NCBI GenBank assembly: GCA_038320275.1
Contig: JBBQEB010000050.1
Span: 1 to 23,452, forward strand
Length of the DNA: 23,452 nucleotides
Source of the DNA: Myxococcales bacterium
GTDB taxonomy: Bacteria; Myxococcota; Myxococcia; Myxococcales; Anaeromyxobacteraceae
Direction of reading: 5' to 3'
In this document: one piece after another, positions 6,912-9,010 of the stretch
How the letters are laid out: the number at the start of each line of letters is the position of its first letter
Position numbering within the stretch: the stretch's first letter is position 1
Position numbers and translations under genes: made by a program
Notes under the pieces: model-generated
Seen by the model: only the letters and a program-made list of their open reading frames with translations
Database searches by the model: none
Told to the model about the DNA's origin: nothing

Positions 6912-6940
6912 TTGACACTGCGGGTTGGGACCGTTACCTC
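6912..6940 (+). promoter_or_regulatory. sigma70-type promoter of the MerR-family gene
   Basis: TTGACA (6912-6917), N17, TACCTC (6935-6940), 11 nt before ATG 6952. Confidence 0.55.
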
Positions 6941-6951
6941 CCGACCACGGC

Positions 6952-7470
6952 ATGGCGGACGCGGAGCGTGGGCGCGAGAGCACGACGGAGTACTCCTCCG
7001 GAGACCTGGCGCGGGCCACGGGCAACACCGTCCGCACGATCAGGTTCTACGAGGAGCAAGGGCTCTTGCGCGCGGCCCTGGTGAGCGAGGGCGGCCACCG
7101 CCGCTACACGGCCGGGGATCTCGAGCGCATGCTGTTCATCGGCGACCTCCGGGAGCTCGGGCTTCCGCTCTCCGAGATCCGCGCCGTCCTCGACCTGCGC
7201 GCGGGCTGCCTCTCGGCCGGTGAGTTCGCGGAGCGGTTCAGGGACGTGCTGCGCGGCCACGTCCGGCAGGCGGAGGAACGGCTCGAGAGGCTCCGCCGGG
7301 TGAAGCGCGAGCTCCTGGAGGCGCTGGGAGTCGTGGAGGCGCGCATCGGCTCGCCCGCGGCCAGCCACTGCCCGTGCGAGCTGGGGGAAGGGTCGGTGGC
7401 GCGCATGGTGAAGGTGCTCGCCGATGCCGGGTCGTGCCGACACCGGAAGCGAGAGGGCGAGGGAAGTTGA
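6952..7470 (+). CDS. MerR-family transcriptional regulator with Cys-rich C-terminus
   Basis: YSSGDLARATGNTVRTIRFYEEQGLL...GGHRRY HTH, coiled-coil dimerisation helix, and Cys in GCLS, HCPC and SCRH. Confidence 0.9.
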   Translation: MADAERGRESTTEYSSGDLARATGNTVRTIRFYEEQGLLRAALVSEGGHRRYTAGDLERMLFIGDLRELGLPLSEIRAVLDLRAGCLSAGEFAERFRDVLRGHVRQAEERLERLRRVKRELLEALGVVEARIGSPAASHCPCELGEGSVARMVKVLADAGSCRHRKREGEGS

Positions 7471-8116: not shown

Positions 8117-8144
8117 AGTTGACATAATCTTCATTATCAGACGC
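8117..8144 (-). other. dif-type XerC/XerD recombination site
   Basis: Minus strand reads GCGTCTGATAA-TGAAGA-TTATGTCAACT. It has the 11-6-11 layout with an ATAA/TTAT inner palindrome, and the XerD arm matches E. coli TTATGTTAAAT at 9/11. It is an AT-rich island in a GC-rich intergenic region. Confidence 0.85.
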
Positions 8145-8266
8145 ACCGGCTGGGCCGATCAATTAGCTCGAGCTGGCTCGAGCAGCCGGTGTTGCGATGG
8201 GTGCGGACCGGCATGGCCGCGGGCTCCAACGCCCGCCTCGCGCGATGAGGCCACGCGCGCCCACGC

Positions 8267-8365
8267 CCGGCCGAGCTGGTGCGCCGCGGCGTGGTCCGCT
8301 CGCTCCAGATCGCGGCCGTGTTCGCGAAGCTGCCGGCGCTGGAGAACGTGCGCGTCGCCGTGCAG
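8267..8365 (+). pseudogene. internal fragment of a LivG-type branched-chain amino acid ABC ATPase
   Basis: PAELVRRGVVRSLQIAAVFAKLPALENVRVAVQ resembles LivG (PxEIARxGIxRSFQxxxVFxxLTVLENVRVA). No Walker A/B motifs are present. Confidence 0.65.
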
Positions 8366-8416
8366 AGCTCGCGATTCTTCGGGAACCGCGCGGACGGGAG
8401 CGCTAACCTCGTCCGC

Positions 8417-9010
8417 ATGCGCTTCCTGTTTCGTTCGTCCGGATTCTCGTGAGGCCCCGTGGCGGGCCTCGGTTGAGGCTCCGTTCTCGCGCCCGTGCTG
8501 GCGCGCTTGCAGGCGCTCCCAGGGATCGCTGACGTGCGTGTCGATTCCACAGGGAGCCTGTTCCTCGTCGAGGCGAGCCGCGAGGCCGCGGAGGCCGCCG
8601 GCCGCTTGCTGGGCGCGGACGCGCGCGTCGTGGCCGAGCCCGCCGCGGAGCAGGCCCTGTCGCGAAGGAACCGCGGTGAAGCGTGGTTCGGTGCGGACGA
8701 CATACGCACCCTGTCGTACCTCGAAGGACGCATGCTGGGCTTCCGGTTCGCGGCCGCGGTGACACGTTCCCTGCGCCTGGAGCGGCCGGTGGGCGACGCG
8801 GCGCACGACGTCATCACCGCCGCCATCCTCGACGAACTGGACCGAGCGCACGACTGCGGTGGGCACCCCACGAGCGAGTGGTTCTGGGCTGCATGGCCCG
8901 ATATCGTCGCGAGGGTTCGGGGCGCGCTGGAACGCCATCCAGCCTGGGCCGCGCTGGCCGGTCCGATCGCGGACGCACTTCGACCGGGCAGGCCTCTGAT
9001 CGATCGCTGA
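8417..9010 (+). CDS. candidate selenoprotein with two Sec (U12, U20; U-x7-U) in an HMA-like N-terminal domain, 197 aa
   Basis: ATG 8417 is in frame with ORF 8495-9010 through two TGA codons (8450-8452, 8474-8476), each followed by a SECIS-like hairpin. The N-terminus GFS-U...LARLQALPGIADVRVDSTG resembles HMA domains (GMxC...LxxLPGVxxVxVD). Confidence 0.75.
8464..8481 (+). promoter_or_regulatory. bacterial SECIS-like hairpin 1 (for UGA 8450)
   Basis: GGGCCUC-[GGUU]-GAGGCUC forms a 7-bp stem (one G-U pair). It starts 11 nt after the UGA and has G first in the loop. Confidence 0.65.
8488..8505 (+). promoter_or_regulatory. bacterial SECIS-like hairpin 2 (for UGA 8474)
   Basis: CGCGCC-[CGUGCU]-GGCGCG forms a 6-bp stem. 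It starts 11 nt after the UGA and has GU at loop positions 2-3. Confidence 0.6.

Follow-up and report, generated by a model that had tools for sequence, protein, structure and literature searches.

Does the 171-aa ORF that standard ORF calling starts at GTG 8495 represent a complete gene, or is it the downstream part of a longer frame in which two UGA codons are read as selenocysteine (Sec), and what would such a protein do? The DNA analysed here, hereafter the window, is a stretch of 23,452 nt, in which the frame from ATG 8417 (+ strand) stays open to the TGA at 9008-9010 when two internal UGAs are read through. The preliminary description had placed TGA at codons 12 and 20 of this frame, both in phase with the 8495 ORF, and the sequence confirms this arrangement. 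The full coding sequence (8417..9010, +) would encode a 197-aa double selenoprotein, with UGA1 (8450..8452, +) specifying Sec12, UGA2 (8474..8476, +) specifying Sec20 and the final TGA acting as the true stop; TAG is found at the equivalent position in some orthologues. Our comparative analysis suggests that the window gene is very probably a real, uncatalogued double selenoprotein belonging to a mercury-linked family.

Two In-Frame UGA Codons Alternating with Cysteine

A search with the read-through protein gave matches in 30 of 101 relative genomes (29 of 60 within the host family and none of 40 beyond it). Although this was a protein search that did not require TGA at either site, two in-frame TGAs were present in 34/34 matches, and none had TAA or TAG at these sites, the outcome that the preliminary description had named as evidence against Sec. 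Thirty-three of these matches were scored as having two TGAs and one as having three, because its alignment overruns the true stop. The motif shared by 20 relative loci is G(F/Y)xUGPVxG(L/F)GUG(S/T)xLAPVLAR. A 301-genome sample of the phylum added one U/U copy in another family and one stop-free copy.

It had also been anticipated that homologues would carry Cys at positions 12 and 20. Among 94 distant representatives (50% clustering), Cys occupied both sites in 37, as C-x7-C in 36 and C-x8-C in one; a further 48, including the window ORF, start right behind the second site, the outcome that unrecognised Sec would give. GTDB genomes and metagenomes were then searched with a DNA pattern accepting TGA or TGY at both sites. 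As this pattern fixes codon positions 1-2 of the motif, Cys forms are under-sampled and the resulting U:C ratio is not the true ratio. The 86 GTDB matches included two (L086 and L111, E>1e-5) that were discarded as chance, leaving 84 true homologues with 75 U/U, 4 U/C, 1 C/U and 4 C/C forms, distributed over Myxococcota/deltaproteobacteria (32), Chloroflexota (25), Planctomycetota (23), Acidobacteriota (2), Actinomycetota (1) and one unclassified genome. The metagenomes contained at least 120 homologues, and the 120 matches listed were all true (103 U/U, 3 U/C, 5 C/U and 9 C/C). Among these GTDB and listed metagenome matches to the TGA/TGY pattern, TGA swaps solely with TGY at both sites, across five phyla.

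The U and C forms were interleaved on a quick tree, on which the window protein lay nearest to Anaeromyxobacteraceae; as the tree is quick and unrooted, no direction of Sec/Cys change is claimed. The idea that Cys forms are confined to Sec-less hosts was rejected, since selB was found in all four C/C genomes. On these comparisons, UGA12 and UGA20 are almost certainly decoded as Sec.

Paired Hairpins Downstream of the UGA Codons

As the preliminary description had proposed, each UGA has its own hairpin starting 11 nt downstream. SECIS-1 (8464..8481, +) has a 4-nt loop beginning with GG at +19, and SECIS-2 (8488..8505, +) has a 6-nt loop with GU at +19/+20. The GTG in the SECIS-2 loop is the false start (8495) chosen by ORF callers. 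A point absent from the preliminary description is that the GA of UGA2 belongs to the 3' arm of SECIS-1 and is paired in its stem. Both hairpins lie within the bacterial SECIS constraints drawn in Fig. 2A of PMC13188914 (stem of 4-16 bp, loop of 3-9 nt with G in its first two positions, UGA 16-37 nt away); unlike that consensus, the window has tandem elements 24 nt apart with the second UGA inside the first stem, and no description of a second UGA within a first SECIS stem was found in the literature searched.

The hairpins follow the Sec codons across homologues. In the GTDB loci, SECIS-1 was SECIS-like in 69/74 U/U versus 1/4 C/C loci, and SECIS-2 in 74/74 U/U loci. Among the metagenome matches listed, the stem 1 core was kept in 101/102 U/U versus 0/9 C/C forms, and stem 2 was complete in 102/102 U/U, 4/5 C/U, 3/3 U/C and 0/9 C/C forms. 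Third codon positions in the 74 U/U loci were frozen where they take part in pairing or the loop (Pro26 CCC 74/74, Val27 GTG 74/74, Ala29 GCG 69/69, Leu18 CTY 72/72), and those of Gly13, Ala14, Val15, Gly19 and Arg30 took all four nucleotides. Over 73 distinct sequences, 91.5% of cells were paired versus 35-52% with slid partners. The covariation score was 0.097 versus 0.065 in shuffles (0/500), although kinship can inflate this score, and one stem-2 pair showed five double (compensatory) changes, which turn Ala29 into Glu or Val.

The 29-nt segments of the window fold at -15.3 and -12.4 kcal/mol; folded alone, the window hairpins are no more stable than shuffled sequences (z -0.61 and +1.27), and the minimum free energy fold that includes UGA1 is a different hairpin that hides UGA1. 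At the Rfam gathering threshold, the window gave one tRNA only and no SECIS. The support for putative SECIS function at this locus is comparative, not energetic. The conserved TGA pairs, their alternation with TGY and hairpins that track Sec bear out the earlier view that the double TGA represents a Sec pair and not two chance nonsense mutations.

Seven U/C forms (L064, L067, L070, L072, L213, L235 and L259) all keep stem 2 without a second UGA, and their stem 1 is mismatched; in these forms, either Sec20 was lost recently or SECIS-2 aids the reading of UGA1.

Probable Translation Start and Selenocysteine Machinery

The start codons of the orthologues lie 11-16 codons ahead of U1. In the window, the -10-type box TAACCT noted earlier is indeed present 7 nt before ATG 8417 (8404..8409, +), with no Shine-Dalgarno sequence at the usual distance. 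A TANNNT sequence 5-9 nt ahead of the start codon was found in 13/20 orthologues versus 2/400 control positions, an enrichment that suggests leaderless transcripts; the mRNA from ATG 8417 is probably leaderless, with its transcription start placed from this pattern. Scanning for promoters revealed no complete sigma-70 promoter on the + strand. A start further upstream in frame was dropped, since that frame is an ABC-ATPase-like fragment. This gene fragment (8249-8365, +), in frame with ATG 8417, shares 73% identity across 37 aa with a segment of contig C42, resembles a LivG-type ABC ATPase and probably represents a scar of recombination immediately ahead of the -10 box.

Further upstream lies a dif-like XerCD site (8117-8144, +) with two 11-bp arms flanking a 6-bp core, recognised by the dif consensus and the sole pattern match in the assembly; the selenoprotein gene lies 270 nt from the probable chromosome terminus. 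In the window, genes for a MerR-family regulator and a tautomerase precede the selenoprotein gene and one for an Rrf2 regulator follows it, a set of neighbours that is not conserved. The MerR-family regulator (6925-7470, +), 1 kb upstream, has several C-terminal Cys and scored below cut-off with all CadR/ZntR/MerR/CueR-like models.

The preliminary description had asked for Sec machinery in the genome, and most of it was found. Both selA and selD were above cut-off, with selD itself containing one TGA, and two tRNA-Sec genes were present on contigs C89 and C231. For selB, the host assembly (90.7% complete) contained only an N-terminal fragment (49 model positions) at a contig end, without a detected wing domain. 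Among family genomes, 59/61 have selA, and selB was above cut-off in 27/29 carrier genomes of other groups, including the four C/C genomes.

Predicted HMA Domain and Relation to Catalogued Families

An HMA-like fold with GFS-U at the position of GMx-C had been suggested earlier, and the structural analysis agrees on both points. The AlphaFold2 model (67 sequences, Sec as Cys) had a pLDDT of 95.9 and a pTM of 0.89. Residues 1-75 (8417..8641, +) are predicted to form a beta-alpha-beta-beta-alpha-beta ferredoxin-like HMA domain, whose structural matches were an ATP7B domain (Z 8.2, rmsd 1.9, 65 aligned), ZntA (7.5), CsoZ (7.4), Ccc2a (7.1), CopZ (6.9), NmerA (6.0) and also MerP; each of these Z scores is middling, yet the matches to the model agree on the HMA fold. 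A profile comparison by hhalign with nine HMA-region sequences taken from the loci, including a misaligned one, gave 96% (E 3e-9) and aligned U12 with the first Cys of GMTCxxC, so that UGA1 is the counterpart of that Cys in the GMxCxxC motif. U20 sits just before helix 1, at its start, and the CxxC loop is thereby widened by five residues to U-x7-U. The PF00403 score was 14 bits against a cut-off of 24.8, with U-x7-U in place of the CxxC spacing, and no Pfam family reached its cut-off for the window protein. The short form starting at 8495 would lack strand 1 and the metal loop of the predicted HMA fold.

Residues 76-197 (8642..9007, +) are predicted to be all-helical, with conserved W90, L99, S100 and E103; the W..LS.E motif named in the preliminary description proved to be the most conserved part of this domain. 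It gave non-specific helical matches only (Z up to 8.5) and no clear structural relative. A Foldseek search with the predicted model returned nothing at E<=0.001, and no solved structure was related by sequence (best E 0.11).

Lipoprotein-type (lipobox-like) or hydrophobic leaders are present in many Planctomycetota and some Myxococcota homologues, and no signal peptide or leader was seen in the window protein or in the Chloroflexota forms. Several divergent architectures were observed. Two Pirellulaceae paralogues (L061 and L114) extend about 130 aa past U1, and in L061 a hydrophobic helix with a basic tail, resembling a sorting signal, replaces the full helical domain. In P0068 (352 aa), a truncated-type homologue is fused to a DSP/tyrosine-phosphatase-like domain. 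In the database protein P0118 (198 aa), the Sec loop is replaced by an unrelated N-terminus, presumably HdrA-like, and this protein is probably a chimeric assembly.

The statement that this is not a described selenoprotein family holds for the catalogues searched, none of which contains it; Haft & Tolstoy 2025 and the groundwater candidates of Deng et al. 2026 lie outside this comparison, and either could mention the family. The U-x7-U motif is absent from the 119 selenoprotein families in Table 1 of a 2026 review (PMC13188914). In NCBIfam 20.0, no model approached its cut-off, whether with the window protein or with 29 varied Sec homologues. The best score among the Sec forms was 22 bits against a cut-off of 95, with NF041115 (UxxU metal-binding (seleno)protein, labelled putative mercuric reductase in Table 1 of PMC13188914). 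NF041115 likewise combines an HMA fold with a pair of Sec in its metal loop, but its motif is UxxU and its model covers a single domain of 74 positions, compared with U-x7-U and 197 aa including a helical domain here; it gave no match to the window protein at E<=1. A word-indexed protein search found the window's own truncated ORF alone, and an alignment search found six more proteins, Cys-type or partial, annotated at most as 'hypothetical protein'. The RefSeq entries WP_242340308.1 and WP_242392132.1 are truncated 'hypothetical proteins'.

With MerP, NmerA and CopZ (PF00403; TIGR02052; PDB 1osd, 2kt3, 1cpz), the family shares the fold, the first ligand at the GMxC position, the place of homologues in mer operons and the occurrence of exported and cytoplasmic forms; it differs in having Sec, a loop five residues longer and an extra domain, and TIGR02052 (MerP) matched neither the window protein nor the 29 Sec homologues. 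NF045683 (MerT/CopZ fusion-like selenoprotein) and NF033556 (MerTP) resemble it in that MerT is joined to an HMA-type Hg-catching domain, and such modules occur in some Cys homologues; however, these matches cover the fused MerT/HMA part only and fall below cut-off, leaving the C-x7-C domain unmatched. According to 10.1101/2022.07.06.499078 and Table 1 of PMC13188914, SaoL (NF040728), the HgcA/HgcB selenoproteins and MbdU (NF045648) have Sec at mercury- or metal-contacting sites and are truncated in databases. As far as these sources describe them, they have both properties in common with the window family, but their motifs are CU or GVGU, and their NCBIfam models matched neither the window protein nor the 29 Sec homologues. 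Likewise, Pfam and NCBIfam scans gave no sequence match to MerB (PF03243) or SaoL. From these comparisons, the protein would work like an HMA metallochaperone, yet it lies outside PF00403, NF041115, MerP and MerB by defining motif or score. Sec within HMA loops of canonical spacing has precedents (NF041115, NF045683).

Linkage to Mercury Genes

Several homologues are physically joined or coupled to mercury genes. Five Cys homologues (P0053, P0058, P0075, P0087 and P0094) carry a MerT-like module; three of them also have an HMA domain, and two further Cys homologues carry HMA alone. In L194, the gene order is merR-like, merT fused to the C-x7-C domain, and merA, which places the domain in the MerP slot of a mer operon. 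A merA gene passing the TIGR02053 cut-off stands beside the gene in L063, L083, L119, L132, L064 and L069, with a partial one in L125, and the merA stop overlaps the gene's start codon in L063, L119 and L125. The MerA encoded in these loci has a CCAE terminus and lacks NmerA, the domain that normally recruits Hg and hands it on to the C-terminal Cys pair, as outlined in PMC10587081.

Overall, merA, merT or hgcA lay within 5 kb in 12/84 GTDB loci (74 of which extend at least 3 kb), where neighbour ORFs were called with a custom caller and the profile scan covered a subset of the 602 called; no mer/hgc neighbour was seen in the other 72, and most Anaeromyxobacteraceae copies stand in unrelated contexts. 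A merA-like sequence was found in 14 of the 120 metagenome loci listed, whose median length is 1.9 kb, and 5/5 of those checked passed the TIGR02053 cut-off. Among family genomes, merA was above cut-off in 1/61, located 2.5 kb from one of its three gene copies in an island that also contains parAB, merT and genes of the HMA and CopZ-N types; a second family genome has a similar island with no merA within the stretch read. The hgcA gene was present in 3/61 family genomes, all three of them carriers, and adjoins the gene in two. In the host genome (90.7% complete), no merA, merT or hgcA was found. Across 43 carrier genomes, merA was above cut-off in five, four of which had been chosen knowing that merA was adjacent; in all five, merA is in the same cluster as the gene, in one case by contig overlap, and that one has its own NmerA. 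The protein is therefore not simply an NmerA substitute, and the proposal that the gene always stands in for a missing NmerA was rejected.

The mer/hgc link recurs in clades of Chloroflexota, Planctomycetota and Myxococcota, in which related genomes are not independent. ArsR/ArsC/Acr3/ArsM neighbours occurred in 14/84 GTDB loci, as frequently as mer/hgc, so that part of the mercury link could be due to metal islands of any kind.

Two mobile-looking islands, L141:5590-10487 (parA/parB) and L143:6350-9408 (parA-like, radC), contain a MerR-less mer cluster, in which an input-less sigma-54 activator and the selenoprotein gene are divergent from merT and from genes of the HMA and CopZ-N types, with merA in L141. 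The intergenic gap of L141 contains a 9-bp inverted repeat.

Possible Function

The preliminary description had left the motif open as metal-binding or redox. Gene context sharpens this towards mercury and mer genes. As homologues are fused to MerT, coupled to merA and located beside hgcAB, the family is best read as capturing Hg(II) and handing it on, and we consider it reasonably likely that the protein is a two-selenolate Hg(II) scavenger, MerP-like when exported and NmerA-like or a sink when cytoplasmic. Under this proposal, SelB and tRNA-Sec would decode UGA12 with SECIS-1; the ribosome would then melt SECIS-1, which contains UGA20, and UGA20 would be decoded with SECIS-2 in the same register. 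The product would be an HMA domain with its CxxC widened to U-x7-U, packed against the helical domain. Selenolates bind Hg more tightly than thiolates, and the two selenolates would most likely bind Hg(II) as a chelating pair, and perhaps organomercurials or further soft metals as well. Exported and MerT-fused forms may catch Hg outside and feed MerT, and cytoplasmic forms may trap it inside and deliver it to MerA in hosts with merA; in genomes such as that of the host, where no merA was found, the protein could serve as a high-affinity Hg sink.

The mercury assignment has to be weighed against a broader one, in which a real double selenoprotein binds soft metals or metalloids in general (Cu(I), Ag, Au, As(III)) or works as a diselenide redox protein, and its mer linkage stems only from residence in metal-resistance islands. 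Many metals are bound by HMA folds, merA was not detected in most carriers, and the ars/ArsR neighbours in 14/84 loci are accompanied by CusBA in L087 and thioredoxin-like neighbours in L069 and L094. However, the MerT fusion in the MerP slot of a merR-merT-merA operon, the merA stop/start overlap and the hgcAB adjacency are Hg-specific, and we regard the broader assignment as unlikely. There is a slim chance that the protein is catalytic, either as a MerB-independent organomercurial lyase/demethylase or as an HgSe-forming enzyme using the two selenolates together with the conserved polar S100 and E103. Such a role would give a purpose to the second conserved domain, which is superfluous for a plain chaperone; the gene adjoins the methylmercury-forming hgcAB, no MerB match was found among the neighbour ORFs scanned (the subset of 602 called), and Sec takes the place of an Hg-contacting Cys in the MerB-like SaoL, as reported in 10.1101/2022.07.06.499078. 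Against catalysis, the protein matches no MerB family in Pfam or NCBIfam, the MerB fold is absent among the structural matches listed, and the lipoprotein and MerT-fused forms are exported like MerP. A related combined reading, to which we give a small chance, is an unrecognised branch of mercury chemistry in which two selenolates break Hg-C bonds or lock Hg away without MerB/MerA, joined with a cooperative tandem SECIS whose downstream hairpin, from +43, helps to decode the upstream UGA. Chemistry of this kind would explain the place beside hgcAB and the presence in many genomes without detectable merA, and the cooperative element is suggested by the retention of stem 2 in 7/7 U/C forms.

It is very unlikely that the protein senses Hg and acts in trans on a sigma-54 activator lacking a sensory domain, with the two together replacing MerR. 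In L141 and L143, the gene is immediately preceded by an activator devoid of an N-terminal input domain; the two are transcribed divergently from merT-merP-copZ(-merA) and occupy the MerR position, and the activator stop in L141 overlaps the gene's GTG start. This arrangement is nevertheless limited to two loci; L070 has the same activator type but with an exported copy, at other loci ArsR or MerR-like regulators precede the gene, which there takes the place of a regulated one, and the window copy has no such activator beside it. Absence of recoding, with a start at GTG 8495 or a pseudogene carrying two nonsense codons, would agree with the truncated form being the only one in databases, with unremarkable single-sequence hairpin energies and with the incomplete selB of the host assembly. 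It is scarcely tenable in the face of the exclusive TGA/TGY exchange at both sites across five phyla, the TGA-only outcome in relatives retrieved by a protein search that did not demand TGA, the hairpins that track Sec versus Cys, and the loss of strand 1 and the metal loop from the 8495 form. We retain the two-selenolate Hg(II) scavenger as the working interpretation.

Significance

This analysis adds a selenoprotein family that is absent from the catalogues searched and is found in at least five phyla. The gene occurs in about half of the Anaeromyxobacteraceae genomes searched (29/60), including cultured soil and paddy isolates. As a candidate new mer gene, it would tie Sec to loci of mercury reduction (merA) and methylation (hgcAB), and the natural U/U, U/C, C/U and C/C forms offer a ready series for investigating the contribution of selenium to Hg binding. 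The two hairpins provide a compact model for the reading of UGAs that lie eight codons apart, the second within the first recoding element.

The Sec-bearing end is cut off in the RefSeq entries of the family. Neighbour ORFs in three loci (L060:4566-4886, L078:8412-8900 and L132:8572-9180) resemble the DF family, WAxxUGC and ArsM double-Sec models, all below cut-off, and are possibly truncated at UGA. In the host genome, a second hidden selenoprotein was observed, with an HMA domain, an N-terminal hydrophobic leader and an in-frame TGA in place of the first Cys of its motif, giving UxxC (G000:C125:1518-1691, +).
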